Shown piece after piece: positions 13,962-61,013 of a stretch of 63,451 nucleotides of DNA. How positions within the stretch are numbered: position 1 is the first letter of the stretch; the number at the start of each line of letters is the position of its first letter. The translations under genes and the position numbers were made by a program. Origin of the DNA: a virus; IMG/VR virus record IMGVR_UViG_3300033512_000504, one strand, 5' to 3'. Under the pieces are notes generated by a model. The model was not told where the DNA came from. It was given only the letters and a program-made list of their open reading frames with translations, and ran no database searches.

Positions 13962-15251
13962 ATGGATAAATATCAGTATATGTTCGATTACGCTCCAGTA
14001 TCTATTTGGGAAGAGGATTGGAGTCACGTAAAAATTCTTCTAGATGGCATTAGAGCAATTGTCAAACCAGAAGAGATAGGTTCCTATTTTACCAATAATC
14101 CTAATTTTTTAAATCAATTAGTAGGCTCAATAAAAATAACAAGAGTCAACAAAAAATGTTCAGATATATATGACGCCAACTCAAAAAACGAACTACTCGT
14201 ACAACCACTACAAAAGACATTTTCATATAATAGCTACGTAACTTTTCAAAAAGAAATGGAAGCTCTTTATAGAGGCGATTCGTTTTTCGAACATGAAACA
14301 GAGAGAACAACATTGTCAGGAAAAACAGTATATATCTATCTGAAAGTAAAACTGCCAACAACTGAACAAGAATATAATAATGTAATTGTAATTATGACAG
14401 ATTTAACAGAAGCAAAAACTATAAAAAATGACTATTTAAGAACCAAGAATACATTTTACCAAGCATTTCATAATGGTATGACGGGTATGGCGTTAATTGG
14501 AATGAATGGAAACATTATTGAAGTTAACCAATCTTTTTGTGATTTAACCCAATATAAAACCGATGAAATATTATGTAAAAACGTATCTCTTCTTTTTAAC
14601 AACATTATGGTTAAAAATGTATTTGACAACAAAATACCAAACTTTAAAACAAGCATCCTTTTAAGAAGAAAAGACGATCATGAAGTTTGGGTTCTTCTAG
14701 GATTAAGCATGGTGGTAGACGAGGTAGGATGCCCGTTATATTTTGTCGGACAAATTGTAGATATAAACAACGAAAAATTAAATTCTGATATATTTCAAAA
14801 AAACGTGGAAAAATATCAACAACTTTTAGACTCAACAAATGCTGTCTATTTAATTTTAAATCAAGAGGGATTGATAACAGACTCCTCAGACAACTTTAAC
14901 AAATTATTCAACTATAACGACAATGATATTAAAAACAAACCATTAAGAGCTTTAGTATCAACACAAAGTATTCCAGTATTTGACAAATCATGGGCGGCAA
15001 TAATTAAAGGACAAACAATTAATGCTGTCGAAATATCATTGGAAAAAGGTGTTATATTCAAATGGTTCAGCTTTAATGCCAGTATGTTTATTAATGGATG
15101 CACAAAGATTTTTGTACTTTTGACAGATATTACCGACAAAAAAAAACAAGAATTCCAAAAGATAATAAAACAAGAGAAGAAAAGGGATAAACTTAGGAAT
15201 AATATTCAAAGTTTAAGGGACACAATAGAGAAAATCAAAAATACAAGGTAA
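13962..15251 (+). CDS. multi-PAS sensor protein with no recognisable output domain
   Basis: APVSIWEEDWS, EVNQSFCDLTQY, RRKDDHEVWV...VGQIVDI, LLTDITDKK PAS/PAC motifs; ends in a coiled coil. Confidence 0.85.
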   Translation: MDKYQYMFDYAPVSIWEEDWSHVKILLDGIRAIVKPEEIGSYFTNNPNFLNQLVGSIKITRVNKKCSDIYDANSKNELLVQPLQKTFSYNSYVTFQKEMEALYRGDSFFEHETERTTLSGKTVYIYLKVKLPTTEQEYNNVIVIMTDLTEAKTIKNDYLRTKNTFYQAFHNGMTGMALIGMNGNIIEVNQSFCDLTQYKTDEILCKNVSLLFNNIMVKNVFDNKIPNFKTSILLRRKDDHEVWVLLGLSMVVDEVGCPLYFVGQIVDINNEKLNSDIFQKNVEKYQQLLDSTNAVYLILNQEGLITDSSDNFNKLFNYNDNDIKNKPLRALVSTQSIPVFDKSWAAIIKGQTINAVEISLEKGVIFKWFSFNASMFINGCTKIFVLLTDITDKKKQEFQKIIKQEKKRDKLRNNIQSLRDTIEKIKNTR

Positions 15252-23716: not shown

Positions 23717-24466
23717 TTAATCCGTTTCATTTGTGAATGCGTAGAAGGCTATACCTGTTCTTTCGTTTTCACCCATACTGGTTACAATAAAATCATCCCA
23801 ACAATATAAATCCGGACCTCTCGTAGCCGTAAAACCTCTAGCGATTGCCAAAGCTTTACAGGCTTTACCAATACTGGCATTACCAAAACATCTTATAACA
23901 CATTCTTTGTTTTCTTCAACCGCATGTGTTATAGCTCCAGCCAATTTACGGACTCTCAAGCGTCTTTCTTCTGGATCAATATCCTTTGGATCTGCCTTGA
24001 CCATTAGTATACTTTTAACCTTGTCTAAATCAACTTCTTTTTCTTTTGGTTGAGCAAACGTACAAAAGCATATGCCTGTTAATGTACTATCTCCAATTTG
24101 TGCAGTTAGAAAGGCTGGAGAATAAGCTATTTGCAAATTATGAGTATCTGCTATATAGGATTTTGCGATTGCTAAAGCTTTGCAAGCCTTGCCAATACAT
24201 GCATTGCCAAAAGTCCTTACGTTTATTTCTCCACCAGTTCTTAAAGAATGGCTAATTGCTCCTGCTAATTTTTTAACATTTTTTTTGCGATCATCTGCAC
24301 TAATGTCAGGACTATCTGCTGCTACTTTCAGTGACGGTTTATTGTCAATCAATTCCGCTGTCTTTTCGCCAACGTTAAAATCATAATCTTCATTTGTATC
24401 TTGAATGTTTTCTGTCATGCTCGAACTCCTTTTTCCAAAATTTTCATCAATATTAATCCTATTCAC
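23717..24466 (-). CDS. protein with two tandem SpoVS (Alba-fold) domains
   Basis: Twice LKV/LMV...KLAGAI.H...FGNA.IGKACKALAIA(K/R), matching SpoVS VAGALA...AVKAVAIARGF. Confidence 0.8.
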   Translation of the reverse strand: MNRINIDENFGKRSSSMTENIQDTNEDYDFNVGEKTAELIDNKPSLKVAADSPDISADDRKKNVKKLAGAISHSLRTGGEINVRTFGNACIGKACKALAIAKSYIADTHNLQIAYSPAFLTAQIGDSTLTGICFCTFAQPKEKEVDLDKVKSILMVKADPKDIDPEERRLRVRKLAGAITHAVEENKECVIRCFGNASIGKACKALAIARGFTATRGPDLYCWDDFIVTSMGENERTGIAFYAFTNETD

Positions 24467-31088: not shown

Positions 31089-33014
31089 TTATATTGATAA
31101 ACCTGATCCACCAAATTTTGAAAAAATAGATCCGCCACCATATTGTTCCATCTTTTCAACCTGTTTTTTCTTTTGCTTTTTCTCATTATCTACATCGTTT
31201 TTTGCGGCATCATACATCTTTAACAATGTTTCTTTACCGACATGCCAACTCTCTTGCATACACCCATTTTCAACTAAAGCCTTGAAAACTCGACTATTAA
31301 CTTTTCTAGTTTCAACGGTATGAAGAAAATCCTTTAAATCCTTAAACGGCTGATGCTCAACAATACTTTCAACAGCTTTTGAGCCAACACCATCTAAAAC
31401 TGTCAATGGAGTTCGTAGCCCATCCTTTTCAATACCAGTTGATTCGTCCATAAAAGTAGCAATACTATACTTCAATCCACTTTTATTTATGTCTGGCGAT
31501 TTTATCATTATATCCATCCGCCTTGATTCCTGCTGATATGAAGCTAATTTCTTGCCTTTGTCAGAATTATTTATTTCCGAAGACAATAAACTACACATAA
31601 ATTCCAATGGATAATAAATTTTAAGCCAAGCAGTTTGATAAGCTAACATCGCATAAGCTGCACTATGTGATTTATTAAAACCGTATCCGCCAAAATATTC
31701 AATCTGCTCAAATATTGCCTTTGATGTCTTTTCATCAATATTGGAAAACGACTTGCAACCATCATAGAAACGAGTATCTAACTGTTCCTTTTTAATTAAC
31801 TCTGGCTTTTTCTTACCAACAACCTTTCTTAAAATATCAGCTTGACCAAGAGTAAAACCAGCTAGCTTTTGCACTACTTTCATTAAATCCTCTTGGAACA
31901 CAATAATTCCGTAAGTCTGATCAAGAACTTCGCCCATCTTAGGATGCAAATATTCAATCTTTTTACGCTTATGTTTGTAATCGCTATACAAATCATGTAC
32001 CCCTGCACCAAGCGGACCGGGACGATATAAAGCATTACACACAACTAAATCATTGAATGTATCAACATGAATACTCTTTAACAACTTTGATATTCCATGG
32101 GATTCGAACTGGAATATACCTCTATTATCCATATTCTTATACCCGCCGTTAAACAAAGCAAATACCTTTTTGTCATTAGGATCTAAATTGTCAATATCGA
32201 TATCAACACCATAACGTTTTTTAACGAGATTGAGAGTTTCTTCAATTACAGTCAGCGTTTTTAAGCCAAGCATGTCAAACTTCAAAAGACCAAGCTCTTC
32301 TACTTCTGACATTGTAAATTGAGAACAAATCGCCCCTTTAGATTCTCGAACAGGAATATGGTCAACGACAGGATCTTTGCAAATTATGATTCCAGATGCA
32401 TGAACACCAGCAGAAGAAACAATATTTTCGATTCTCCTACTTGCGTCTAGTAAATCAGGATATTTTAGCATTACATTTCGAAAAGCCTCTTCATCCTTCA
32501 ATGCAGATTCGATTGTTGTGCCGGGAACTTCTGGTATTAATTTTGCAATAAAATCAGCAACATCAAGACTCTTTTTCGTCATTTCAGCCTTGATATTGGG
32601 ATTACGTTTCTGATTTAACTGATAAATATCCCAATCGCCACCAATATCAATAGCCTTTGCAGCATACCTAATCGCCGCCTTCGCCTTAAAAGAATTATAG
32701 GTTCCGATTTTACAACAATAATCAGCACCATATTTGCGATTAATGTATTCGAAAATCTCATCACGTCTAAAATAATCAAAGTCAATATCTACATCGGGCG
32801 GACTAACTCGCTCTGGATTAATAAATCTCTCAAATAACAAACCATAAAGAATAGGATCAAGCTTGGTAATACCCAAAACATATAGACATAGACTACCTGC
32901 ACCAGAATTATGAACTGATAAACCTTCTACATTATATGCACTTAAATCTGGAACCGTTAAATCGTGTACTTTCCCTTGATATATTCTTCGAGTTATTTTC
33001 TTTATTTTAGCCAT
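31089..33014 (-). CDS. dnaE: DNA polymerase III alpha, C-terminal half, preceded by a 36-aa C-intein
   Basis: MAKIKKITRR...VHDLTV...VHN|SGAGSL; ERFINPERVSPPDVDIDF, GLLKFDMLGL, GFNKSHS. Confidence 0.95.
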   Translation of the reverse strand: MAKIKKITRRIYQGKVHDLTVPDLSAYNVEGLSVHNSGAGSLCLYVLGITKLDPILYGLLFERFINPERVSPPDVDIDFDYFRRDEIFEYINRKYGADYCCKIGTYNSFKAKAAIRYAAKAIDIGGDWDIYQLNQKRNPNIKAEMTKKSLDVADFIAKLIPEVPGTTIESALKDEEAFRNVMLKYPDLLDASRRIENIVSSAGVHASGIIICKDPVVDHIPVRESKGAICSQFTMSEVEELGLLKFDMLGLKTLTVIEETLNLVKKRYGVDIDIDNLDPNDKKVFALFNGGYKNMDNRGIFQFESHGISKLLKSIHVDTFNDLVVCNALYRPGPLGAGVHDLYSDYKHKRKKIEYLHPKMGEVLDQTYGIIVFQEDLMKVVQKLAGFTLGQADILRKVVGKKKPELIKKEQLDTRFYDGCKSFSNIDEKTSKAIFEQIEYFGGYGFNKSHSAAYAMLAYQTAWLKIYYPLEFMCSLLSSEINNSDKGKKLASYQQESRRMDIMIKSPDINKSGLKYSIATFMDESTGIEKDGLRTPLTVLDGVGSKAVESIVEHQPFKDLKDFLHTVETRKVNSRVFKALVENGCMQESWHVGKETLLKMYDAAKNDVDNEKKQKKKQVEKMEQYGGGSIFSKFGGSGLSI

Positions 33015-33958
33015 TTTTTTATTTTCACCTTCAAACTTTCTGTTTTACTATTTTCGTAAAAAACAATTTCGTCATAGTACTTTCTATAAAACTCCCTTAA
33101 GTATGTTTCTCGCCTAACATAGATACCCATATTATACAAATCATTCAATCCATAAACAACATATCTACTTCCAAATTCTTTCATTCCAGCGTTAAATTTT
33201 TCATGAAAATTATTATATTCTTTTGACCCTTTTATCTCTACTATTCTAGTTTTTCCATTTGAATATTTAACAAAAAAATCTGGATAATATTTTCTTTTAC
33301 AACCATTTGGATCAACGTAACTAATACTTCCTACAAATCTTTCTATAGACTTTATCTCAACGTTTTCCCAGCAATATGTCAAAAAGCACAATTCCCAACT
33401 ACTATCAAATCTGACATTCCTAATTGTACCACTCACATACGACTTAGAACATCTTTTATCTGCGTACATCGGGTCTTCTCGCATCAACTTCAATTGAGAA
33501 TCTCTTTGTTTATTTAAAGTTTCAGGTTTGTTTTGAGCTATTTTCTGAGCATTCGAATTATTATTTAGCCATTCTTGCGAACTTGTTGCATATCTCAATG
33601 AACATTTTCTGCAAATAGGCTTTGTACCACATATTTTCCTTATTTGCATCATTTTTATCGACATTATTTCATCTAAACCACATTCTTGACATATAAACTT
33701 TACTTTCTTTTTTGTTTTAAGCGTTTCTATAAAAGGTTTAACGAGATCATAATCCCAATATTCATCATTTAATTTATCTCTAAGTATTTCTGGGTAATAC
33801 TCTTTGCGAACCGATCCACCATGACTATGTAGCTTATAACACGGCTGGCAAATCGGTTCAGATGATTTTTCCCTCCGTTTTTGTAGCACTCCAATTTGTA
33901 TATCAAAATCATTTCCGCACTCTTGGCATTTAAACACTTCTCTATTTGCATTACTCAT
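33002..33958 (-). CDS. free-standing homing endonuclease (Zn fingers plus TnsA-like PD-(D/E)xK domain) between the dnaE halves
   Basis: CQECG twice, FDSSWE, YYPDF...IVEIKG. Confidence 0.8.
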   Translation of the reverse strand: MSNANREVFKCQECGNDFDIQIGVLQKRREKSSEPICQPCYKLHSHGGSVRKEYYPEILRDKLNDEYWDYDLVKPFIETLKTKKKVKFICQECGLDEIMSIKMMQIRKICGTKPICRKCSLRYATSSQEWLNNNSNAQKIAQNKPETLNKQRDSQLKLMREDPMYADKRCSKSYVSGTIRNVRFDSSWELCFLTYCWENVEIKSIERFVGSISYVDPNGCKRKYYPDFFVKYSNGKTRIVEIKGSKEYNNFHEKFNAGMKEFGSRYVVYGLNDLYNMGIYVRRETYLREFYRKYYDEIVFYENSKTESLKVKIKKWLK

Positions 33959-34049
33959 AAGTACCTCCTTTTCTTTTATTGCTTATGAGTAATAGTTCTA
34001 TATTTTAGTCGCAACCTCCTTCTTCCTACTCCAATTAAAATAACCTACC

Positions 34050-35453
34050 TCAACCAATACCGTCTTCAATATCAAATATTTCATCGTTTTCTGTCAAATT
34101 CCCAGCCTCTACAAAAACTAAAATGCCGTTTCTTTTAACATGTATTTTGTGATCTAATGTACAAGATATCTTTCTTCCGTCTTCCGTTTCTATTTCTACT
34201 ATTTCTTCGTCAATGTCATAATCCAACAAGTTCGTAACCTCATGATATTTACCATCATACGCCAGCACTTCATCCTCAAGAGTTACATCTTTTATAGCCT
34301 TCAATCCTAGTTTGCATTGAACTTTGGTTTCAGGAATAAAACAACCACGTCCAACTCCTGTCCTAATTGATTGTTGTCTGGCGTAATTTATAACATCCCA
34401 AAGAGTAAGGAAATACCTAACAAATCCGCAACGAACAATCAATTCCATTTCCATCTTGATACGTTCTCTATATTCTGGCTTTGTAAGTAGCCCTCTAGAT
34501 TTCATGCCATCTTTGATCAACTCCTTGAGATATTTTTCCTCGGTATCAAACCCATCTGGCAAATTGAAAAACGGCAATAAATCTTTTGATGGAATTAAGA
34601 TAGCATCGTTTTCAACCTTTTCAAAAATATCCATTGTATTCGTCAATAATTCTGGAGCACTCTTATACAATTCGTACATCTCTTCGTATGGACGTATATG
34701 AAACTCGTTACCATTAAATGTGAAACGTTTTGGATTTTTTATATGGTCATGAGTCTGCATTGATAACATAATGTCATGATATTTTGAATCGCATGCCTCT
34801 GCGTAGTGAGAGTCGTTAGTGCAAACCGCCTTGATATTTAATTTCTTAGCCAATAGATATAATTTCTTGGCTATTTTACGTTCATTGTTCTCTTGCTCTT
34901 TTGCCTCTTTATTATATTTATGCATCATGATTTCTATATAAAAATCATCACCAAATATTTCCTTATACTGGTTCGCAAAATCCAATGCTCCTTTTTCATC
35001 ATCTTGTAAAACTTTTGACGGCAACTCTCCAACACAACATGCGGTCAAACATATAATACCTTCATGATACTTCTTCAATAAATCCAAATCAATCCTAGGT
35101 TTATAATATTTACCAGCAGTTTCCGCAATAGTCGATAAATTCATCAAGTTTTGAACGCCTATATGATTTTTAGCAAGCAAAACTAAATGATGACGTGGAG
35201 AATCTTTATCACGAGAACGATGATCAGAGCACATGTATACTTCATTACCCAAAATAGGTTTTATTCCAGCTTCCTTACATGCCTTTTGAAAATCATACCA
35301 TCCTCCACAAGACCCATGATCCGTAATAGCCAATGATTTAAAGCCTTTTTTAACAGCCGATGCTACCATGCTTTCAGGAGATGAAAATCCATCCAAAACA
35401 CTATAATAGCTATGATTGTGTAAATGAACAAAATCGTGGATTACTTGTTCCAT
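34050..35453 (-). CDS. dnaE: DNA polymerase III alpha, N-terminal half (PHP domain) fused to an N-intein
   Basis: FVHLHNHSYYSVLDG, AITDHG, TNDSHY; GVGRG|CFIPETKV...SCTLDHKI intein blocks A and B. Confidence 0.95.
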   Translation of the reverse strand: MEQVIHDFVHLHNHSYYSVLDGFSSPESMVASAVKKGFKSLAITDHGSCGGWYDFQKACKEAGIKPILGNEVYMCSDHRSRDKDSPRHHLVLLAKNHIGVQNLMNLSTIAETAGKYYKPRIDLDLLKKYHEGIICLTACCVGELPSKVLQDDEKGALDFANQYKEIFGDDFYIEIMMHKYNKEAKEQENNERKIAKKLYLLAKKLNIKAVCTNDSHYAEACDSKYHDIMLSMQTHDHIKNPKRFTFNGNEFHIRPYEEMYELYKSAPELLTNTMDIFEKVENDAILIPSKDLLPFFNLPDGFDTEEKYLKELIKDGMKSRGLLTKPEYRERIKMEMELIVRCGFVRYFLTLWDVINYARQQSIRTGVGRGCFIPETKVQCKLGLKAIKDVTLEDEVLAYDGKYHEVTNLLDYDIDEEIVEIETEDGRKISCTLDHKIHVKRNGILVFVEAGNLTENDEIFDIEDGIG

Positions 35454-40888: not shown

Positions 40889-41302
40889 TTGTATAATATA
40901 AGTATGAATAAGAGATGGACACATTCTAATAAGGCAATCTTCAATATTGGATACCACTTAATATGGTGTACAAAATATAGAAAGCAGTTGTTAACAGAAA
41001 ATATAGAAAATAGATTGAAAACTCTTTTAGAACAAAAATCAAAAGACATAAATGTTTCAATAGAAAAATTAGAAGTGCTTCCAGAGCATGTTCACTTATT
41101 CGTAAAATGTAGTCCAGTAGATTCGCCACACTTTATAGTCCAACAATTTAAAGGGTATACCTCACGAATACTCAGAAGTGAATTTAAAGAACTTAGAACA
41201 AAGATACCCACTCTTTGGACAAGAAGTTATTATTGCGAATCATGCGGACATATCAGTGAAGAAACGGTTAAAAAATATATAGAAGACCAAAAGAACAAAT
41301 GA
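40889..41302 (+). CDS. tnpA: IS200-type Y1 HUH transposase
   Basis: YHLIWCTKYR, EHVHLF, LWTRSYY, YIEDQ. Confidence 0.95.
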   Translation: MYNISMNKRWTHSNKAIFNIGYHLIWCTKYRKQLLTENIENRLKTLLEQKSKDINVSIEKLEVLPEHVHLFVKCSPVDSPHFIVQQFKGYTSRILRSEFKELRTKIPTLWTRSYYCESCGHISEETVKKYIEDQKNK

Positions 41303-42360
41303 TATTGACATACAAAATTAAACATAACAAAGATTTTTCTAGCGAACTAAACATTGCTAGAAAAATTGCCAATTATGCTGTCACAACTAAATCAAGAAGC
41401 TCAAAGGATGTAAAGCACTTTGGTCTAAAATCCCAAATGTCAAACCAAATTCTTAAAAAATATTCCAAAAATAAAAAGTGCAAAACAATCACATCTGTCA
41501 AATTAACTGTACCAAACCAAGGAGTTAAAGTCAATCAAGAAACAAGAACAATAAAAGTTCCTGTACTAAAACTAGAACTAATATATCAGTTCCCAAACAA
41601 CTTCACCAAAATAAATCAAATAGAAGTGGATAATACCTATTGTTTTGTTTCTTGTGAAGTTCCTAACGAGAAAGAAACAAAATTCAAAGATTATATAGGT
41701 ATAGATTTGAACACCACTGGTCATTGTGCTGTAATAGCCATTCCTAAATCTAATAAGGTAATAAAACTAGGTAAATCAGCCAATCATATTCACTTGAAAT
41801 ATAAAAATTTAAGAGCAAAACTTCAAAAGAAAGGAGCGAAGCATCAATTAAAGAAAATCAAGAGAAGAGAACAAAACATAATTAAGGATTTAAACCACAA
41901 GATAAGCAAGAAAATAGTTCAAGTAGCAAAACAAAACAATTGTTGTATAAAACTGGAAAAATTAACTAAAATTAGAGAGAAGAGAAACAAGAAAACGCAA
42001 CAGTCATTCAAGTATTCCTTAAATAGTTGGAGTTTCTATCAGTTGAATATGATGATAGAATACAAATCCAAGATATTAGGGAGACCAGTTGCTTATATCA
42101 ATCCTGCATATACTAGCCAAACGTGTAGTAAGTGCGGAGTTATAGGTAATCGGAATGGAAAAGAATTCAAATGTGTTAGTTGTGGACACGTTGACCATGC
42201 GGATTCAAATGCAGCATTTAATATTGCTGCATTTGAATTATTGAACAACACTGAAAGCGATGGTCATTTAGTATTAGACAGAGATAATATTAAGAGGAAC
42301 ACTGATATCCTCAGATTAGAAAGTCAAATGCGAAGTGAGAACGTAGCATTTGTTAACTAA
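41299..42360 (+). CDS. tnpB: TnpB RNA-guided nuclease
   Basis: GIDLN, LEKL, PAYTSQTCSKCG, HADSNAAFNI. Confidence 0.93.
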   Translation: MILTYKIKHNKDFSSELNIARKIANYAVTTKSRSSKDVKHFGLKSQMSNQILKKYSKNKKCKTITSVKLTVPNQGVKVNQETRTIKVPVLKLELIYQFPNNFTKINQIEVDNTYCFVSCEVPNEKETKFKDYIGIDLNTTGHCAVIAIPKSNKVIKLGKSANHIHLKYKNLRAKLQKKGAKHQLKKIKRREQNIIKDLNHKISKKIVQVAKQNNCCIKLEKLTKIREKRNKKTQQSFKYSLNSWSFYQLNMMIEYKSKILGRPVAYINPAYTSQTCSKCGVIGNRNGKEFKCVSCGHVDHADSNAAFNIAAFELLNNTESDGHLVLDRDNIKRNTDILRLESQMRSENVAFVN

Positions 42361-43471: not shown

Positions 43472-44782
43472 TGTTGTTGAGCGGAAACCCCGACATCTTC
43501 AGTGTCGTGGGTTAGCGAAACTCATTTCCTTTCTTTAGTTTTCTATAGTATACATATATTTTAACAAAAATCAATAAAAAAAGAAGGGAAATACTAAATA
43601 GTTATAGAAGTAGGTTAATATATGAAATTAATTCAAACAGCTAAACTAGTTATAGATTGCTCACCATCTGAGTTCAAATCTACTATTCATGCTTATACTA
43701 ATGCTTTTAATCATGTTTGTCAAGTAGGATTTGACTCCAAGGATACCAATGGCGTTTCCCTACATCATAAAACTTACAACGAATGCAGGAAAGCACTTCC
43801 ATCTCAATTATCCATATCTGCCAGAACCAAAGCTACAGAAACGCTTAAGTCAGTTAAAGCTATAATCAACAAAGGCAAAAAAGCAACCTGTCCTAAATCA
43901 AAACAAACCGCTATTCGCTATGACGTTAATTCTTATTCTCTTTGGCTTAACAAAAATCTAATTTCGATATCAACAATTAACGGGAGAAAGAAATTCAATC
44001 TAATTATTCCTGAATACTTTAAACAATATCTTACTTGGAAATATACTACAGCAGATCTTTTCGTTAAAAACAACAAGGTGTTTATTCATGTTGTTTTTGA
44101 AAAGGAAACGGCAGATATTTCTTCAAATGATAACTTTGTTGGTATTGATCGTGGTATTAACAAAATAGCAGTTACATCTCAAAACAAATTTTATGATGGA
44201 AAGAAAATAAAATCTATTTCTCGTCGGTATGAGAAAATCAGAAGTATGCTTCAATCGAAAAAGCATTCTGGCAAAAGACACCTTAAGAAAATAAAATCTA
44301 AGGAACAACGGTTTCGTCGGGATGTCAATCATACAGTCACTAAACAAATAGTGAATTCGATTGATTCTGGTAGCACAATAATCCTTGAAAAACTTACAGG
44401 AATTAGAAATGCTAAAGCACGAAAAGAACAAAGAAAAGAATTGAACAAATGGAATTTCTTTCAATTTGAACAGTTCTTGAAATACAAAGCAATGGCTAAG
44501 GGTATTAAGGTTGAATACACTCCTGCACAATATACAAGTCAGAAATGCAGTAATTGTGGGATTATTTTAAAGTCAAACCGAAAATCTCAAGCTGTTTATA
44601 AGTGCAGTAAGTGTTCTTTCTGTTTGAATGCAGACTTAAATGCATCCAGAAACATACGAAAAAATTACTTGGACGCTATAAGCAATCCAAGTGGGGCTTC
44701 AGTCAATAAGCCTAATGCTCCTAGTACTCTTTTAGAGATAGTCGAGCAAGCCCAACCATCTTTAGTGGTTGGGTAGTTGACA
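43472..44782 (+). mobile_element. tnpB-only (IS1341-like) element
   Basis: Left TGAGCGGAAACCCCGACATCTTCAGTGTCGTGGG and right CCCAACCATCTTTAGTGGTTGGG hairpins flank tnpB; boundaries approximate. Confidence 0.8.
43622..44776 (+). CDS. tnpB: TnpB RNA-guided nuclease
   Basis: GIDRG, ILEKL, YTSQKCSNCG, NADLNASRNI. Confidence 0.93.
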   Translation: MKLIQTAKLVIDCSPSEFKSTIHAYTNAFNHVCQVGFDSKDTNGVSLHHKTYNECRKALPSQLSISARTKATETLKSVKAIINKGKKATCPKSKQTAIRYDVNSYSLWLNKNLISISTINGRKKFNLIIPEYFKQYLTWKYTTADLFVKNNKVFIHVVFEKETADISSNDNFVGIDRGINKIAVTSQNKFYDGKKIKSISRRYEKIRSMLQSKKHSGKRHLKKIKSKEQRFRRDVNHTVTKQIVNSIDSGSTIILEKLTGIRNAKARKEQRKELNKWNFFQFEQFLKYKAMAKGIKVEYTPAQYTSQKCSNCGIILKSNRKSQAVYKCSKCSFCLNADLNASRNIRKNYLDAISNPSGASVNKPNAPSTLLEIVEQAQPSLVVG

Positions 44783-45658: not shown

Positions 45659-45734
45659 TGGAGCCAATTGTCGGCTTCGAACCGACGACCTATAGTTTAC
45701 GAAACTATTGCTCTACCAACTGAGCTAAACTGGC
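45659..45734 (-). tRNA. tRNA-Thr(CGT)
   Basis: Cloverleaf, anticodon arm ATAGT-TTCGTAA-ACTAT, CCA encoded. Confidence 0.92.
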
Positions 45735-45811
45735 AAATACACAACGGTGCATTCGCTATTCTCGAATTACGAATTGTAGTGCGACTACAACATTGCACCT
45801 GCATTACAAAA

Positions 45812-45931
45812 TGGAGCCAAAGTCGGGAGTCGAACCCGATACAGTAGCGAACCGTGTCACCGTAGCACTTTATGAACCATCCGTCCCGTCAAATGGAACG
45901 AAGGAGAATCGAACTCCAAAGCATCTTTGGC
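45812..45931 (-). ncRNA. tRNA-like RNA with two T-arms and a nested, permuted acceptor helix
   Basis: GCCAAAG/CTTTGGC-T-CCA outer stem; T-arms GGAG-TTCGATT-CTCC and TCGGG-TTCGACT-CCCGA; no anticodon arm. Confidence 0.7.
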
Positions 45932-45937
45932 AAAATC

Positions 45938-46013
45938 TGGAGCCAGTTGACGGCTTCGAACCGACGACCTATAGTTTACAAAACTATTGCTCTACCAACT
46001 GAGCTAAACTGGC
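45938..46013 (-). tRNA. tRNA-Thr(TGT)
   Basis: Near-copy of Thr(CGT), loop TTTGTAA, CCA. Confidence 0.9.
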
Positions 46014-46020
46014 AAATATT

Positions 46021-46488
46021 CTATCCTTTCAATATTTTTATCGTTTCATCAACATGTTCTGCTAACAATCCGCCATTTTCAAATGACGTTTGAACTAAAT
46101 GATCCATTAAATGACACATATCGTCGTCATCATCTAATATTACAAACCTTTCTACTTCAGGATGATTAGTTAGCCACAATTGTATTTCATCTCCTCTGTT
46201 TTCAAATCCATCCTCTACTCTCTCATTATCCAAAACCGTTCTTTCAACAACAGGATTACCTATAAAGCCCTGTTCCCTAAGTAATGCATTTATGTCAATC
46301 TGCTTCTTTGCCTCAGCGTATCTCCAAGAAGATGAAAGTACAATCGTTAAATCATCAACATTCTCTACAATTCGATTCAATCTAGCAACTAACAAAGGGT
46401 CAATAACCCAACAAGAATGATTTGTTCCTTTCCCAAAAGAACTAGTGCAATTTAATACTCCATCGATGTCTAAAAATATAACATTCAT
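46021..46488 (-). CDS. HAD phosphatase, Swiss-army-knife RNA-repair-like family
   Basis: FLDIDGVLN, VLSSSWR, RGDEIQLWL, FVILDD. Confidence 0.85.
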   Translation of the reverse strand: MNVIFLDIDGVLNCTSSFGKGTNHSCWVIDPLLVARLNRIVENVDDLTIVLSSSWRYAEAKKQIDINALLREQGFIGNPVVERTVLDNERVEDGFENRGDEIQLWLTNHPEVERFVILDDDDDMCHLMDHLVQTSFENGGLLAEHVDETIKILKG

Positions 46489-46504
46489 TTTTTCCTTTAT
46501 ATTA

Positions 46505-46589
46505 TGGATCCGGTTGAGGGAATCGAACCTCCAGTAACTTTCGTTGCCGCATTACAAGTGCGGTGCTTTAGCCATTCAGCCAAACCGGC
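46505..46589 (-). tRNA. atypical tRNA-Thr(TGT) with long variable arm
   Basis: CCGCA-CTTGTAA-TGCGG arm, variable hairpin AAC-GAAA-GTT, G1:A72 mismatch, CCA. Confidence 0.75.
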
Positions 46590-46591
46590 AT

Positions 46592-46783
46592 TTAAAAAAT
46601 TTTTACTACCTTATTTAATTTTACATCATTGTTTTGTTTAACACATGACCCGTCAAAATGTTCCATATTAACCCTTCTTCTATCTAGTTTTTTATTACAA
46701 AATGAGCACTTCTCAATAGGACTTTGATAATAAACTTTCTTAACTTCTCCGTCTATCAATTCCAACGAATAATTACCACTCAT
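46592..46783 (-). CDS. small hypothetical protein (CxxC)
   Basis: True start likely MSGNYSL after AGGAG; the longer ORF overlaps tRNAs. Confidence 0.45.
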   Translation of the reverse strand: MSGNYSLELIDGEVKKVYYQSPIEKCSFCNKKLDRRRVNMEHFDGSCVKQNNDVKLNKVVKIF

Positions 46784-46800
46784 TTCATCTCCTTTAAAAA

Positions 46801-46877
46801 TGGTAGGAGTCATGGGATTCGAACCCATAAGACCCCAGATTAAGAGTCTGGTGCTTTGCCAAATAAGCTTCACTCCC
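46801..46877 (-). tRNA. tRNA-Lys(CTT)
   Basis: CCAGA-CTCTTAA-TCTGG, T-arm ATGGG-TTCGAAT-CCCAT, CCA. Confidence 0.88.
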
Positions 46878-46886
46878 AACAAAAAT

Positions 46887-46964
46887 TGGTAGGTGGTGAG
46901 GGACTCGAACCCCCGATAATGCCTGCGTGTAAAGCAGGTGCTGTTGCCGCTGAGCCAACCACCC
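46887..46964 (-). tRNA. tRNA-Val(TAC)
   Basis: CCTGC-TTTACAC-GCAGG, CCA. Confidence 0.88.
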
Positions 46965-47011
46965 ATTATATCATAATTTATTCCTTCTTATCTTATCATT
47001 TCCTTTTAAAA

Positions 47012-47086
47012 TGGTAGGTCGCCTGTGACTTGAACACAGTTCCGTAGATTAAAAGTCTACTGCTTCACCGTAAAAGCTTGCAACCC
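47012..47086 (-). tRNA. tRNA-Lys(TTT)
   Basis: GTAGA-CTTTTAA-TCTAC, CCA. Confidence 0.88.
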
Positions 47087-47088
47087 AT

Positions 47089-47124
47089 AAAGTCTAGTGC
47101 TGCTACCAACTGAGCTACATACCC
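47089..47124 (-). pseudogene. 5' half of a tRNA (Lys-like) ending in the anticodon loop
   Basis: GGGTATG-TAGCTCAGTTGGTAGCAGC-A-CTAGA-CTTT, then directly the next tRNA. Confidence 0.75.
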
Positions 47125-47161
47125 ATTTTTCTATTCTGTCTTCAAAAGACCTATATGCAAT

Positions 47162-47197
47162 AAAAAAGCCCGAAGTTATAATTAACTCCGGGCTTTT
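47162..47197 (-). terminator. attenuator terminator upstream of the Lys/Val/Thr tRNA cluster
   Basis: AAAAGCCCGGAGTTA-ATTA-TAACTTCGGGCTTTTTT. Confidence 0.9.
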
Positions 47198-47219
47198 CTT
47201 TAATCTGTCTTATGTAGGT

Positions 47220-47303
47220 TTACTTAACAAGACAAATCAAACCCGGGGCAGTCGTTTTGACTACCTTTACGGTTTTAGTTGTTTTTGTTTTGTAAGCGTA
47301 CAT
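47220..47303 (-). CDS. attenuator leader peptide MYAYKTKTTKTVKVVKTTAPGLICLVK
   Basis: 14 consecutive Lys/Thr/Val codons; 3' end overlaps the antiterminator strand. Confidence 0.85.
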   Translation of the reverse strand: MYAYKTKTTKTVKVVKTTAPGLICLVK

Positions 47304-47351
47304 TTTATTTTCTTTCTTTAATCGTGACCTATCTTTTAATTGTTCGAGATT

Positions 47352-47379
47352 AGTATATCTTATTCCTTTAAAAAATCAA
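47352..47379 (-). promoter_or_regulatory. promoter TTGATT-N16-TATACT
   Basis: Same spacing as the other copies in the window. Confidence 0.7.
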
Positions 47380-47388
47380 GACTTATTT

Positions 47389-52052: not shown

Positions 52053-52188
52053 ATATCGTAATCCAAGTTGGCAATACTTTATTTGGTGCATAATGAGGGA
52101 ATTGAACCCTCAACGTTTTGATTAATATTCAAATGATCTACCATTGATCTAATTTTGCTTGTGAGTACTATCTGAGGGATTACGATAT
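52053..52188 (-). ncRNA. Y-RNA-like ncRNA B1: closing stem enclosing a tRNA-like cloverleaf
   Basis: 12-bp ATATCGTAATCC/GGATTACGATAT stem; inner D, anticodon-like and T arms with CCA (52084-52158). Confidence 0.7.
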
Positions 52189-52210
52189 TAAATTATAAAA
52201 GAGCGGAAAA

Positions 52211-52336
52211 GACTTGGAGAGGAATGTCTACCTCTCGCCAACCTCTGCAAATCCTGAGAAGGAGCTTTATCGGTTCTACCAGCAGTTGAAGGCTTCATTC
52301 ATTGTCGTCTCGGTTACTAACAATGAGCCACAAGTC
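52211..52336 (-). ncRNA. structured ncRNA C (multi-hairpin)
   Basis: GACTTG/CAAGTC closing stem, GAGAGG/CCTCTC and CATTGT/ACAATG hairpins, GC-rich relative to background. Confidence 0.5.
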
Positions 52337-52341
52337 AAAAA

Positions 52342-52465
52342 AATAACGACCCAAGTTTGCAATACTGTATTATAGTGCGAAGGATTTGAACCTTCTCATT
52401 ATCCTTAGAAGGGATATGTTCAACCAAATGAACTTGCTTGTAAGTACTTCATAAGGGGTCGTATT
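52342..52465 (-). ncRNA. Y-RNA-like ncRNA B2: closing stem enclosing D, anticodon(TCT) and T arms
   Basis: ACGACCC/GGGTCGT stem; shares GTACT(T/C)ACAAGCAA and AGTATTGC.AACTT with B1. Confidence 0.7.
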
Positions 52466-52487
52466 AAATTATAAAAGAGCGAAAAAA

Positions 52488-52625
52488 TGGTGGGAAGAGA
52501 AGGACTCGAACCTCCAATTGCTTGTAAGCGTTTAAATAGGCAATTGATTTCTCAATTGAAGTAGTAATCGCATTTTTTGTTTAGTGTTTAATTGACTAAT
52601 GCCTTTACCATTTGGCTATCTTCCC
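52488..52625 (-). ncRNA. tRNA-like RNA A1 (138 nt) with ~65-nt insertion at the variable arm
   Basis: Acceptor GGGAAGA/TCTTCCC-A-CCA, D arm, T loop TTCGAGT. Confidence 0.8.
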
Positions 52626-52632
52626 AAAAAAG

Positions 52633-52770
52633 TGGCGGAGAGAGAAGGACTCGAACCTCCAATTGCTTGTAAGCGTTTAAATAGGCAATTGATTTCTCAA
52701 TTGAAGTAGTAATCGCATTTTTTGTTTAGTGTTTAATTGACTAATGCCTTTACCATTTGGCTATCTCTCC
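52633..52770 (-). ncRNA. tRNA-like RNA A2 (138 nt), tandem copy of A1
   Basis: Identical to A1 except compensatory acceptor GGAGAGA/TCTCTCC and discriminator G. Confidence 0.8.
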
Positions 52771-54889: not shown

Positions 54890-56497
54890 TTACTTCTTGA
54901 CCGTATCCCACCATTTTGGCAATGTAGGAAGAGGAGTATCCATAATCTCGTCAACAAGAGCTACCTCACCTTTAACTGCCGTTGCTACCGCCTGAGGAAT
55001 CAAGGCAGATTCCTTAAGTGCCTCTGGCTTCATAATAGCAACTGGAATACCAGCCTTGTTAAGACCGTCTTCCAACTGACCCTTGTATTGAGCATTGCGG
55101 TTTGCACTAAAGTCAATAATAACAGCGGCTCTCGGTTTCGCAACACTAGGATTATCCGTATGATATTTATTAATACGTGTTACAATACTACCAACATTAT
55201 GTCCCTGATCCGTAATATAAATATCAACTTCTGCACCTTGTTTGCGAGCTTCATTGTAAAGAGCGATACAATCCGTTGACCCACCAGCCCTAACACCATA
55301 AAGAGATTTGTAAAAATCTTCCTTAGTAAAGGACTTCGGCAATGCCAACTGAGTACCCCTGTTGCTAAACAATCCCCAACCAAAGTTGCTAACAGGATTA
55401 TCTACGCACTCTGCAATTGTCGCAGCATTGTCCATAGCAAACTGAATTGCGTTTTGCATAGAACCGCTAGAATCAATGTGAAGGAAAATCTTTCCAAGAC
55501 CCGCTGCCTTTGCCGCCTTCTTGCGAACATCAGAACGAATCTTTGACATTTCTTTCTTGTCCTCTTCGTCTGCATTCCTAGTAAGCGTATCAATACGATC
55601 AACTGCCGTAGTAGATTCTGCAACCTTACTGTTAAAAAGACTCTTAATGCTCTTCACATCGAGATATCCGTTCTTGGCAAACCAATTGTACAAAATAATG
55701 GATTGATTTCCTGTGCAACCAGACAAAAGAGCCTTGGCAACATTCGCTGTAATTTTCTCCTTTGGAATAACAGACAAAGCAACCGTTGGAGACAATTTGC
55801 TCTCCGACAACTTCTGAGCGATTTCCTGAGATGTCATATTAGCGAAATCTGGCAAATTCTCCATTTTTGAAATGTCAGGTCCGCCAAACTTCTGCTTCCA
55901 TCTTAAAACAGCTGCCGCCTCTGGAATAGGTGAAGTCCTTGTCAAGCGATAAAGCTGCTGCATCTTTTTAGCTAAACCACTTCTTTTCATTCCACGAATA
56001 GAATCAATGTTGCTTTCACGGAATCCGATATATTTACGGAAGGCTGTTTTCAAACCTGTCGCAAAATGACAAGAATCATTAAGTTTTCCCTTTACTGCAA
56101 ATTTCTTATGAGCCAACTCCAATACTCTTAATGCCAAATGCGGATCAAGTTTCTGCAATACGGCATAGCTAACCTCACGATAGTTAGGCTTACACTGTTT
56201 TGCACCCTTGAAAAAAGGAGTTCCATTACCATCATTTAACGAATTGAAGAAAACGGAAACGACCTTCAAATCTTTCGACTCCTGATTAGCCGCATATGCC
56301 GTCAAATGAGCCATAAACATAGGATCATTAATAGCAACATCTGCAAAAACATTCGCCACTGCCAAGAACTTATCTTCCTGAAGTTTACCTTTAGAATACA
56401 AGTGAGTACATGCGGCGGACAACATTTTGAAAATTGCCAACCTCTTTTCATCCGAATATTCACCGAGTGCTGCGTTGCTAATTGTATCTGTGTTCAT
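54890..56497 (-). CDS. Ro60/TROVE-like protein with C-terminal vWA domain
   Basis: Helical N-terminus (DPMFMAHL, LYRLTRTSP); MIDAS IDSSGSM, GGSTD, YITDQGHN; Ro60-like length. Confidence 0.75.
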   Translation of the reverse strand: MNTDTISNAALGEYSDEKRLAIFKMLSAACTHLYSKGKLQEDKFLAVANVFADVAINDPMFMAHLTAYAANQESKDLKVVSVFFNSLNDGNGTPFFKGAKQCKPNYREVSYAVLQKLDPHLALRVLELAHKKFAVKGKLNDSCHFATGLKTAFRKYIGFRESNIDSIRGMKRSGLAKKMQQLYRLTRTSPIPEAAAVLRWKQKFGGPDISKMENLPDFANMTSQEIAQKLSESKLSPTVALSVIPKEKITANVAKALLSGCTGNQSIILYNWFAKNGYLDVKSIKSLFNSKVAESTTAVDRIDTLTRNADEEDKKEMSKIRSDVRKKAAKAAGLGKIFLHIDSSGSMQNAIQFAMDNAATIAECVDNPVSNFGWGLFSNRGTQLALPKSFTKEDFYKSLYGVRAGGSTDCIALYNEARKQGAEVDIYITDQGHNVGSIVTRINKYHTDNPSVAKPRAAVIIDFSANRNAQYKGQLEDGLNKAGIPVAIMKPEALKESALIPQAVATAVKGEVALVDEIMDTPLPTLPKWWDTVKK

Positions 56498-59036: not shown

Positions 59037-59112
59037 TGGAGCATCAGATGGGACTCGAACCCACAACAACAACCTCGGCAAGGTCGTACTCTTCCAATTG
59101 AGTTACTGATGC
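59037..59112 (-). tRNA. tRNA-Gly(GCC)
   Basis: CGACC-TTGCCGA-GGTTG, U73, CCA. Confidence 0.9.
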
Positions 59113-59117
59113 AAAAA

Positions 59118-59146
59118 TGGTAGGGGCGGGTGGAGTTGAACCACCT
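59118..59146 (-). pseudogene. 3' tRNA fragment (T arm, acceptor strand, CCA) abutting the HNH gene stop
   Basis: GGTGG-TTCAACT-CCACC-CGCCCCT-ACCA; no 5' half found upstream. Confidence 0.7.
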
Positions 59147-59495
59147 AGTCAGTATTTTTCCAATGCTCTTTACGATGACAATTAGAACATAAAACCGCAC
59201 ATTTGTCAATCTCTTTTTTGATTCTATCCCATCCCCATCCTTTACTAATAACTTTGCTTATGATAACTTCTTTTTTAGATGGATCTTTATGATGAAAATC
59301 CATACATGAAGGATGATTCTCTCCACAACGTTCACATTTTATATTCTTTTTATAATCTGTTAGTTTATCGGACAATACACGGAGACGATTCCTTGTTTTA
59401 GTATATTGTTTATTCTTATTGCTTAGATACCATTTCTTCTGATATTCTCTATTATGTTGTTTCCATTCTGGCGATGTTCTATCTACTGTTGGCAT
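59145..59495 (-). CDS. HNH endonuclease inserted in the tRNA cluster
   Basis: CERCG...MDFHHKDP...KCAVLCSNCHRKEH. Confidence 0.88.
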   Translation of the reverse strand: MPTVDRTSPEWKQHNREYQKKWYLSNKNKQYTKTRNRLRVLSDKLTDYKKNIKCERCGENHPSCMDFHHKDPSKKEVIISKVISKGWGWDRIKKEIDKCAVLCSNCHRKEHWKNTD

Positions 59496-59568
59496 TTATT
59501 TACTCCTTTTTAGATATTTATTCTAAAAGAAGTCTTATAAACCCTTTTTGTTTTTATAATATTAAAAA

Positions 59569-59645
59569 TGGTGGGCGTGACCCGATTTGAACGGATGACT
59601 TCCAACTTATAAGGATGGCGCTCTAACCAACTGAGCTACACGCCC
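59569..59645 (-). tRNA. tRNA-Ile(TAT)
   Basis: CCATC-CTTATAA-GTTGG, A73, CCA. Confidence 0.85.
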
Positions 59646-59886
59646 AAAACGTTTTCAGTGGTTATTTATTAAACGCACACTTAGATCCATGAATTGAAAA
59701 TCTAGCAAAAGAAACTATAAAAGATCAATATTTAAATCGTTAATTGTTAAATCGTTTTCTACTATCTATAAACAATATTTTTAACAGAACATACATCAAT
59801 TGTTAAGTACATTCCGCTTTTTATTCTCAATTATATCCTGCCTATTTCTAGGTCTTAACAGATACAGTCTGGTCTTCAATAAATTT

Positions 59887-59963
59887 TGGAGCGGCATACC
59901 AGATTCGAACTGGTACAGTCAGTTTGGAAGACTGAAATGCTAACCGTTAAACATCAATACCGC
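59887..59963 (-). tRNA. tRNA-Gly(TCC)
   Basis: TCAGT-CTTCCAA-ACTGA, U73, CCA. Confidence 0.9.
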
Positions 59964-59984
59964 TTTAAACTAAAACTCCTTGCT

Positions 59985-60233
59985 TTAAAATACAAACTTC
60001 TTTAACAAATCCATATACTTATACTCTTTCACTAATTCAGTTAATCTTGGGTCTTTCATAGTGTTACGCAATCTACGAACGGATATTTTGAACGAGTCGT
60101 CGCATTCCAGACATTTTATACCAACATCTTCTTTGGTATTGTCTGGCGAAAACCTCTTGGAACCACTACATTCGTGATTCAACGCCTGTCCCAACATTTC
60201 GTATACTGTCAAACATGTATTAACTTTCTTCAT
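59985..60233 (-). CDS. hypothetical protein
   Basis: 82 aa with GAGG RBS. Confidence 0.5.
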   Translation of the reverse strand: MKKVNTCLTVYEMLGQALNHECSGSKRFSPDNTKEDVGIKCLECDDSFKISVRRLRNTMKDPRLTELVKEYKYMDLLKKFVF

Positions 60234-60260
60234 TCTATCCTCTTCTATTCTCTTTAATTA

Positions 60261-60336
60261 TGGTGGAGGCGAGGGGAGTCGAACCCCTGACCTGATGCTT
60301 GCAAAGCACCCGCTCTACCAACTGAGCTACGCCCCC
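60261..60336 (-). tRNA. tRNA-Ala(TGC)
   Basis: G3:U70 pair, GGTGC-TTTGCAA-GCATC, CCA. Confidence 0.93.
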
Positions 60337-60569
60337 ATATTCAAATCTATTTCTTCGTTTTCCTTATCTATCCAATCTGGCAAATTTTTCATCCATTTCA
60401 AAACGTGTCTCAACAACCATCTGTCTCCTTCCCAATCCATCCATAGCTGATATAAACCATCCCAATCCAAACCGTTCTCGTATCTCTGCTCATACTCACT
60501 AGTTATTAAATCAAATTGATGTTTACCATGTTTAAGGACGAAGAAATAAGGATCGAGTTTGTTAGACAT
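60327..60569 (-). CDS. hypothetical protein; stop lies inside the tRNA-Ala 5' end
   Basis: 80 aa ORF. Confidence 0.45.
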   Translation of the reverse strand: MSNKLDPYFFVLKHGKHQFDLITSEYEQRYENGLDWDGLYQLWMDWEGDRWLLRHVLKWMKNLPDWIDKENEEIDLNMGA

Positions 60570-60790
60570 CCATCTTTCGCATTTATATAGTCCTTGCGTT
60601 TGATACTCATAAAATTGTTTCCTTCCTATTTCATTCGGTTCCGCCTTTGTTTTAGAAAAGACAGAACCGTTTATGCTCCCAGCAATTCAAAACACCTCAG
60701 GAAAACCATTTCGTTCTTTACGACATTCGTGTTTTTCCTTTTTTGACTCTTTTTCCTTCCCATTATATCATCTCCTTAAATTTTTACAAT

Positions 60791-60823
60791 AAAAAAGCTC
60801 GCAACATTTAAGTTACGAGCTTT
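60791..60823 (-). terminator. attenuator terminator upstream of the Ala/Gly/Ile tRNA cluster
   Basis: AAAGCTCGTAAC-loop-GTTGCGAGCTTTTTT. Confidence 0.9.
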
Positions 60824-60845
60824 CTTTAAACTGTCTAGTACTGTT

Positions 60846-60920
60846 TTAGACAGAGAAAGCCCGTAGCATGGCTCCTGCGCCTGCTATCGTTATTGCTATC
60901 TCTGTTCCGTTTATATACAT
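60846..60920 (-). CDS. attenuator leader peptide MYINGTEIAITIAGAGAMLRAFSV
   Basis: AAGGA RBS; 4 ATA, 3 GCA, 2 GGA, GGC, GCC control codons; 3' end is the antiterminator strand. Confidence 0.85.
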   Translation of the reverse strand: MYINGTEIAITIAGAGAMLRAFSV

Positions 60921-60985
60921 GACTAATTCCTTTTTATACCTGTTCTTTGCGATTAATACTTTGACCTTTAATTATTTTCAAATAC

Positions 60986-61013
60986 ATTATACATTAATAT
61001 TTTTGAAAATCAA
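60986..61013 (-). promoter_or_regulatory. promoter TTGATT-N16-TATAAT
   Basis: Recurring motif, ~65 nt upstream of the leader ATG. Confidence 0.7.

Follow-up and report, generated by a model that had tools for sequence, protein, structure and literature searches.

A probable transcription attenuator before tRNA-Ala, tRNA-Gly and tRNA-Ile(UAU) genes in a phage-like genome, with re-coded copies before other tRNA groups

Upstream of a cluster of tRNA genes in a viral DNA stretch of 63,451 nt (IMG/VR record IMGVR_UViG_3300033512_000504, hereafter the window, meaning the whole stretch analysed), we characterised a leader element on the minus strand. With a probability that we put at about 0.8, this element is a ribosome-mediated transcription attenuator, in which slow reading of Ala, Gly and AUA codons opens the genes for tRNA-Ala, tRNA-Gly and tRNA-Ile(UAU). 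In the proposed mechanism, RNA polymerase would start near position 60980 and a ribosome would load on a short leader open reading frame (ORF), which we expect to be translated with translation coupled to transcription. If the ribosome moves quickly through the Ala, Gly and AUA codons, it would cover the end of the ORF, the terminator would form and transcription would stop near 60790. When they are read slowly, with the ribosome at codons up to 16, the free end of the ORF would capture the 5′ arm of the terminator and the polymerase would read through. The new tRNAs would then relieve the stall, which would make the system a closed negative feedback loop.

The layout of the element can be read from the letters of the window (all features are on the minus strand unless stated otherwise). 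It begins with a promoter-like site, TTGATT-16 nt-TATAAT (60986-61013), which lies within a TCTTGATTTT motif common to the paralogous leader described below. Promoter-like sites in the region scarcely exceed chance (105 versus 82 ± 9 in shuffles), so the promoter call leans mainly on the TCTTGATTTT motif. This motif precedes both leaders of the window and leaders of the related records G001 and L022, and it is not over-represented in the window (27 versus 22.6, one mismatch allowed). The Shine-Dalgarno-like AAGGA (60928-60932) is located 7 nt 5′ of the ATG of the leader ORF, which has 24 codons (MYINGTEIAITIAGAGAMLRAFSV and a stop codon, 60846-60920) with codons 2-18 as the control region. The order of promoter-like site, Shine-Dalgarno-like motif and ORF is as required of a leader, and the ORF is retained in five orthologues. 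Its product is hydrophobic and Gly/Ala-rich, and Ile, Ala and Gly account for 11 of the 17 codons of the control region (p 3.5e-5). Isoleucine is encoded by ATA in 4/4 cases, alanine by GCA three times and by GCC and GCT, and glycine by GGA twice and by GGC.

The end of the ORF serves as the 5′ strand of the antiterminator (codons 19-22, 60854-60865), which pairs over 12 bp, one of them G-U, with the 5′ arm of the terminator (60814-60825). This pairing is extended by an inner helix CUGUCUA/UAGACAG (60831-60853) with the stop codon at the helix top, and together they amount to -22.6 kcal/mol. The intrinsic terminator with its U6-AUUG tail spans 60787-60826 (hairpin 60826-60791, -19.8 kcal/mol), and its 5′ arm is the switch strand common to both helices. 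A simple terminator scan of the region left this terminator unlisted. The 191-nt leader region folds with z = -5.6, and none of 200 shuffles was equally stable. An earlier reading made from the sequence alone (the sequence-only reading) had listed the promoter-like site, the AAGGA motif, the ORF, the pairing, the terminator and four tRNAs, and we recovered all of them at the same positions.

The window contains another module with the same promoter motif, leader, antiterminator and terminator (47156-47381), located before Lys/Val/Lys/Thr/Thr/Thr tRNAs (45659-47086); its leader is MYAYKTKTTKTVKVVKTTAPGLICLVK (47220-47303). An alignment of the two modules extends from the TCTTGATTTT motif through to the terminator tail and scores 183, against 124 ± 9 and a maximum of 152 in 300 shuffles; by this sequence comparison they are paralogues, a single module duplicated and given new control codons. 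The sequence-only reading had regarded the Ile/Gly/Ala (I/G/A) element as a second, independent attenuator and had argued from this replication that chance was unlikely. Its argument fails as stated, because both modules descend from one module, and the Met-Tyr start and terminator end that they share reflect common descent. Judged from the sequences, the real replication lies in divergent orthologues and re-coded paralogues, and a picture of duplication and recoding is more informative than one of independence.

Further modules were sought in the closest relative found, the IMG/VR record L001/G001 (161 kb, CheckV 87%), which has 79% identity to the window on the neighbouring ThiF-family protein. 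G001 contains five complete modules, each enriched for its own cargo. Its I/G/A leader, starting MNMNKQIIGIGIAGACGGAA, precedes Ala/Gly tRNAs, and its Lys/Thr/Val (K/T/V) leader, starting MYIKTKTVEKATVFKKT, precedes Lys/Val/Thr tRNAs. The leader pairs that the sequence-only reading had suggested looking for elsewhere were also found: an Asn/Gln (N/Q) leader, starting MFFINQQNNQQNQN, before Asn/Gln/Asn tRNAs, a His/Ile/Glu/Pro (H/I/E/P) leader, starting MKMNINTIHIPEHIEIPEP, before His/Ile(GAU)/Glu/Pro tRNAs (the Pro anticodon was read by eye on an Rfam match), and a Phe (F) leader, starting MNTKQNIFSFFSF, before a Phe tRNA. An additional Asp/Trp/Arg tRNA cluster of G001 is cut by the contig end. 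It appears that in this lineage a single promoter-leader-terminator module was duplicated repeatedly and its control codons were rewritten for each tRNA group.

Using a conserved 535-aa neighbour protein as bait, we obtained 77 loci and scanned 76 of them, one being a duplicate of G001; tRNAs were called in 41. These loci add the I/G/A leaders L022, L023 and L036 and the K/T/V leaders L017 and L035; the scanner found all but L036, which was recognised by eye, its terminator (-11.8) falling just short of the scanner cut-off (-12). L018 has the tRNA set of the I/G/A relatives, and this locus begins 58 nt before the first tRNA. A 'Phe' tRNA of L017 was rejected as a low-score call with no Rfam confirmation. 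The five I/G/A leaders (window, G001, L022, L023 and L036) were compared at a mean column identity of 61%. In their antiterminator core 90% of the cells are paired and both partners have changed in 4 of the 8 pairs, and the covariation score was reached by 4/500 shuffles (n = 5, with the L036 strand one column off in the alignment). The terminator is 97.5% paired, with 4/8 pairs double-changed and 2/500 shuffles doing as well. What comes just after the terminator varies between relatives: the window and G001 have small ORFs there, L022 has a different ORF, and in L017, L023, L035 and L036 a tRNA follows directly. The tRNA set, in contrast, stays constant.

That the whole arrangement is a chance coincidence or an assembly artefact is hardly credible. 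Short ORFs before hairpins are common and our scanner listed many unrelated ones, but conservation, covariation and the cargo match recur across seven contigs. As for an artefact, the leader is covered without one differing letter by contigs from two DNA runs of different studies, one of which may be the source sample.

Outside this group the searches returned little. No cargo-matched leader was found in the distant records G002, G003, G005, L046/L047, L058, L060 and L065, which is not proof of absence because the scanner requires an ATG start and a strong hairpin. The shared module motif had 0 matches in viral contigs, a search of genome contigs gave one 1.6-kb locus, and among the listed matches in GenBank phages only the tRNAs and the HNH gene appeared. 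No relative was found for an upstream 85-aa protein. Two leader patterns matched G001 and, respectively, 1 and 8 other loci; the latter were read as chance, having no leader or cognate tRNAs. A different type of leader was observed in L070 (3879-3980, plus strand, contig Ga0315294_10000059). The leader MKMITRHDLNQSCLFPSTKEGNPAVYWEFDIFR has all 20 amino acids (chance about 7e-4 for its length), and its end forms a 13-14 bp antiterminator strand followed by a terminator and a tRNA cluster; this distant relative likely carries a pan-codon version of the leader. Two further distant relatives, L015 (11506-11595) and L060 (6387-6494), have possible mixed-codon leaders, short ORFs of about 17 different amino acids that precede strong terminators and large tRNA arrays.

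The codon content of the leaders follows the tRNA cargo. All 12 modules whose cargo is defined have a control region enriched for the amino acids of that cargo (binomial p 1.8e-3 to 4e-9), although the cargo classes were set after the data had been seen and orthologues are not independent, so that the fair count is five classes and not twelve modules. All 48 non-cognate leader/cargo comparisons have p ≥ 0.09. This match supports what the sequence-only reading had proposed, namely a modular attenuator whose control codons track the cargo and co-vary with the tRNA content at homologous loci.

Regarding isoacceptors, the match between codons and anticodons claimed earlier held for isoleucine and broke down for glycine and alanine. 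Isoleucine is ATA in 21/21 control codons of the I/G/A leaders, at differing positions, versus 1/5 in the H/I/E/P leader before tRNA-Ile(GAU) (Fisher p 3e-4, codons not being independent), and ATA makes up 38% of the Ile codons in the window genes. Neither RNA structure nor A-richness was accepted as the cause: of the 21 third positions just 2 take part in pairing, and A is the last letter of 22/48 four-fold codons in these regions. Across the five orthologous control regions glycine is GGA 9, GGT 6, GGC 3 and GGG 3 times and alanine GCA 11, GCC 6, GCG 4 and GCT 1 times; all four codons are used for Thr and Val as well. On the sequences at hand, the isoacceptor-specific match holds for Ile (AUA versus AUY) only and the Gly/Ala match is at the amino-acid level, which would suit a cluster with two Gly tRNAs and with U34 tRNAs that may read whole boxes. 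The cluster's own tRNA-Gly(GCC) reads GGT, so the change of GGA to GGT suggested as a reporter experiment in the sequence-only reading would not discriminate.

Because AUA and AUU/AUC sit in different modules, each before its cognate tRNA-Ile, the quantity sensed would be usable tRNA and not free amino acid. We weighed this against a classical multivalent attenuator responding to starvation for Ile, Ala and Gly, with amino-acid supply as the signal and the tRNA cargo incidental. A codon stall alone cannot separate lack of an amino acid from lack of its tRNA, and selective charging of isoacceptors could make AUA the more sensitive codon (both PMC1183508, excerpt). The use of all four codons for Gly, Ala, Thr and Val fits starvation too, as do the sub-threshold scores of both window leaders with an Rfam leader model (given below). 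However, a response to Ile starvation could do without separate AUA and AUY modules, extra tRNA does not add to the amino-acid supply, and the Ala/Gly/Ile cluster of the window, made up of tRNAs, an HNH gene and small ORFs, yielded no identifiable biosynthetic gene. We regard the starvation explanation as quite unlikely.

The switch itself is predicted by folding. We modelled it as snapshots, in which the transcript is folded before the 3′ arm of the terminator is made and the ribosome footprint is assumed to cover the A-site codon plus 9 nt. Pairing between the ORF and the terminator arm is 0.7-0.8 with the ribosome at codons 1-15 and has fallen to about 0 once it reaches codon 18, and the antiterminator is present in the snapshots for codons 1-16 and gone by codon 18. 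The control codons are codons 3-17, which is also the span where stalling should, by this prediction, lead to read-through. All 13 leaders lose the antiterminator pairing in silico once the ribosome passes the control region (codon 13-19; codon 28 in L070). Duplexes between ORF and terminator arm average -14.4 kcal/mol for cognate and -8.0 kcal/mol for non-cognate combinations, and none of 100,000 permutations was as good. The window and G001 together have 15 strong hairpin-plus-U strands, and all seven of those before tRNAs have a leader; the ratio of the alternative duplex is 0.59-1.20 for these seven versus 0.20-0.36 for 6 of the 8 others.

When no ribosome is present, a competing helix is predicted to form in the window leader, with an ensemble pairing of 0.44. 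The minimum-energy snapshot is then the antiterminator in 12/13 leaders, the exception being the window leader, for which a 1:2 (pause/anti-antiterminator) helix is predicted that is missing from the minimum-energy snapshots of the other 12. Most of the leaders would thus also switch on if translation failed entirely. This behaviour would be expected of a general gauge of translation health, in which any stall or failed ribosome loading gives read-through and the codon match merely tunes the sensitivity. The L070 leader with its 20 amino acids points in the same direction, and the upstream ORF (uORF) of whiB7 responds to many starvations (PMC10274678, excerpt). Such a gauge needs neither separate modules with disjoint codon and tRNA sets in one genome, of which G001 has five, nor the split between AUA and AUY, and it seems unlikely to us.

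Several results weigh against a codon-specific attenuator at this locus. Equilibrium folding gives the terminator at every ribosome position, so that switching would rely on co-transcriptional kinetics, approximated here by static snapshots with an assumed footprint. Two of the eight terminators not associated with tRNAs also have a strong alternative duplex (0.65 and 0.88), and the cognate duplex is the best in its row for only 8/13 leaders. The pairing of the window leader was reached by 39/150 synonymous recodings and 2/150 codon shuffles; the corresponding counts of 150 were not significant for L036 (55 and 61), G001 (33 and 21) and the K/T/V leader of the window (105 and 38), and they were low for L022 (5 and 0) and L023 (9 and 4), the recoding null being weak and its results mixed among leaders. 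The number of double-changed antiterminator pairs taken alone was reached by 34/500 shuffles (n = 5). Six of the 17 control codons of the window leader (Tyr, Asn, Thr twice, Glu and Met) have no tRNA in the cluster. The Ile(UAU)-like gene of G001 looks scrambled, yet the leader keeps 4 ATA codons, and in L022 tRNA-Ile(UAU) was called by relaxed ARAGORN only and not by Rfam. The G001 gene (G001:C1:47938-48022, L001:2496-2580) has the anticodon and variable arms inside the D-arm, and it could be a pseudogene, a mis-assembly or a permuted tRNA. Finally, the isoleucyl-tRNA synthetase (IleRS) of E. coli charges a UAU tRNA poorly (PMC3575796, excerpt), so the resupply step depends on the host. The unmodified UAU anticodon of the Mycoplasma mobile tRNA-Ile can read AUA without lysidine (PMC3575796, excerpt), and a UAU tRNA suppressing tilS in B. 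subtilis reads AUA with little misreading of AUG (PMC3919564, excerpt); compared with these two, charging and AUA/AUG discrimination here would depend on IleRS and the ribosome of the host.

Two promoter-like sites also stand against the attenuator, one with an extended -10 immediately 3′ of the terminator (60789-60762) and another inside the cluster (59858-59830). The former is missing from G001 and could bypass the switch in the genome of the window. With these sites, the equilibrium fold and the hydrophobic, Gly/Ala-rich product, one could propose that the ORF encodes a small functional peptide before an ordinary terminator and that the tRNAs are expressed from their own downstream promoters. 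Selection for a peptide, though, could not single out ATA among synonymous Ile codons as seen in the I/G/A leaders, and the paralogues encode unrelated peptides on the same RNA layout. In addition, no TCTTGATTTT-type site is located on the minus strand between the terminator and the last tRNA of the cluster, and the first tRNA of L017 begins about 10 nt after the U run of the terminator, which leaves no room for a promoter. We find a functional peptide very unlikely, and continue to favour attenuation.

The cluster downstream of the leader contains tRNA-Ala(UGC) (60261-60336), tRNA-Gly(UCC) (59887-59963), tRNA-Ile(UAU) (59569-59645) and, as its last gene, tRNA-Gly(GCC) (59037-59112), all recognised by ARAGORN and Rfam; a new promoter-like site (59019-58991) comes after it. 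Its passengers are a 30-aa ORF (60671-60763) in a stretch 91% identical in G001, an open frame of 119 codons, or 80 aa from the first ATG (60327-60686), both with no Pfam match, and an 82-aa Cys-containing ORF (59985-60233) with only sub-threshold Pfam matches. The cluster also contains an HNH endonuclease gene (59145-59495; PHROG 3106, E 6e-27). The 30-aa ORF and the 119-codon frame, which together span 60327-60763, overlap; by eye, the changes relative to G001 are silent in one frame at first and in the other frame after that. The first 39 codons of the longer frame contain no ATG, GTG or TTG; it may start at an ATT after GAGGTG, at an ATA overlapping the TAA stop, or by a frameshift. The passenger ORFs (59985-60763) are 87-91% identical to G001:C1:46776-47621, most genes flanking the cassette are about 68-81% identical, and the leader and tRNA-Ala differ. 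From these identities, the interior of the cassette was likely exchanged recently. Directly after the HNH gene we read by eye an orphan 3′ half of a tRNA (about 59113-59145), and an orphan 5′ half is fused to tRNA-Lys(UUU) at 47087-47123; both are possible scars of the insertion or loss of a homing endonuclease. The Lys/Val/Thr cluster includes a multi-hairpin tRNA-like element (about 45810-45945), 96% identical at G001:C1:63258-63394, for which neither default ARAGORN nor Rfam gave a tRNA call.

The window has a G+C content of 31-38% and the minus strand carries nearly all genes. Profile matches identified genes for replication and recombination (DnaE, clamp, clamp loader, primase, RecA and SbcCD) as well as a sigma factor, a tail-tube-like protein, Thg1, Tpt1 and homing endonucleases. 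No capsid or terminase match was obtained among the 63 proteins of the window or among the 37 of 41 long G001 ORFs that were scanned. Going by its gene content, the window likely derives from a large uncultured phage, probably a giant phage. The best-matching DNA sets were microbial-mat metagenomes, and no RNA datasets were among the listed matches to the window DNA. DnaE is divided into two ORFs (31089-35453) and includes an intein fragment, and an endonuclease-like ORF (33002-33958) lies between the two. Two IS605/TnpB-like genes (41299-42360 and 43622-44776, plus strand), a protein with tandem SpoVS domains (23717-24466) and a multi-PAS protein (13962-15251, plus strand) were also observed. 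G001 encodes a tmRNA (L005:17314-17673, Rfam 66 bits) with a tag frame ending in LKLAA, which we did not find diagnostic of a host.

Neighbours of the module include Tpt1, Thg1, an HAD RNA-repair domain and a TROVE/Ro60-like protein, which fit a theme of RNA damage and do not prove it. The last is the 535-aa protein (54890-56497), which has no Pfam or PHROG match and resembles TROVE/Ro60 clusters by language-model features (0.93-0.96). A sequence search of the PDB found nothing for it, and its structure model has a pLDDT of 83. Downstream of its gene lies an array of odd tRNA-like RNAs (52084-52770), two of them with 58-nt inserts, with a recurring TTACAAGCA motif and with promoter-like sites directly 5′ and no leader ORF. 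Comparable arrays follow the gene in relatives. We presume that these RNAs may be Y RNA-like.

Multivalent leader-peptide attenuators are known from E. coli, for instance thrL and ilvL of ilvGMEDA, besides trpL, hisL, pheL, leuL and pheM before pheST. The present element resembles the thrL/ilvL type in its short leader ORF with clustered control codons, in the antiterminator over the ORF end, in the competing terminator and in the read-through predicted on a stall. It differs in that the cargo is tRNA genes and not enzymes or synthetases, that the genome is phage-like with several re-coded copies and two Ile isoacceptors separated, and that the 1:2 helix without a ribosome is predicted in 1/13 leaders. 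Rfam Thr_leader (RF00506) scored 25.1 bits for the I/G/A leader and 31 bits for its paralogue against a gathering cut-off of 55, and no Rfam leader family reached its cut-off in the window; unlike the amino-acid operon leaders of Rfam, the window leader does not precede genes for amino-acid biosynthesis. T-box riboswitches achieve charging-dependent antitermination with codon specificity by binding tRNA directly without a ribosome, unlike the element here, which is an ORF, and no T-box model of Rfam matched the window at gathering or at E ≤ 5. The whiB7 attenuator of mycobacteria is similar in that a uORF stall leads to antitermination and the composition of the uORF sets the signal sensed. 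Knock-down of tRNAs and synthetases activates it, and a feedback loop with alanine is described; it differs by controlling a transcription factor at one locus of a bacterial chromosome, with no tRNA cargo in what is reported there (all PMC10274678, excerpt). No report of attenuators controlling tRNA genes was found in the literature searched, in which subscription journals are poorly covered. The mechanism is thus already known, and the tRNA cargo, the phage-type setting, the re-coded copies and the resolution of isoacceptors are new as far as that literature goes.

The presence of tRNA genes in phages has lacked a settled explanation for more than 50 years (PMC10264068, excerpt); the leading proposals are codon compensation and the evasion of defences that cleave tRNAs. 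Phage tRNAs replace host tRNAs cleaved by defences (van den Berg 2023, PMC10264068, excerpt), and the PARIS defence is neutralised by a viral tRNA (PMC11464382; see also PMC12409363; excerpts). Replacement of lost host tRNAs would give a rationale for the cargo of the window as well, whereas on-demand control, as proposed for the modules here, is not described for such tRNAs in the excerpts of these three papers. By this analogy the modules may be linked to defence; the trigger could be host nucleases, loss of lysidine or plain demand during infection. We tentatively propose, at somewhat less than even odds, that the lineage holds a bank of duplicated and re-coded sensors that splits the code into AUA/Ala/Gly, Lys/Thr/Val, His/AUY/Glu/Pro, Asn/Gln and Phe. 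Each sensor would detect the loss of specific tRNAs, with a resolution reaching a single Ile isoacceptor, and switch on the matching replacements only, as an inducible counter to tRNA destruction by the host. The split between AUA and AUY offers a clean synonymous-codon test of the attenuator, and tRNA-nuclease activity could be followed with the modules as genetically encoded reporters. If our interpretation is true, these tRNAs would be replacements that the phage makes on demand, the leaders would name the tRNAs that fail in infection, and attenuation would extend from enzymes to decoding molecules, as a closed feedback loop.

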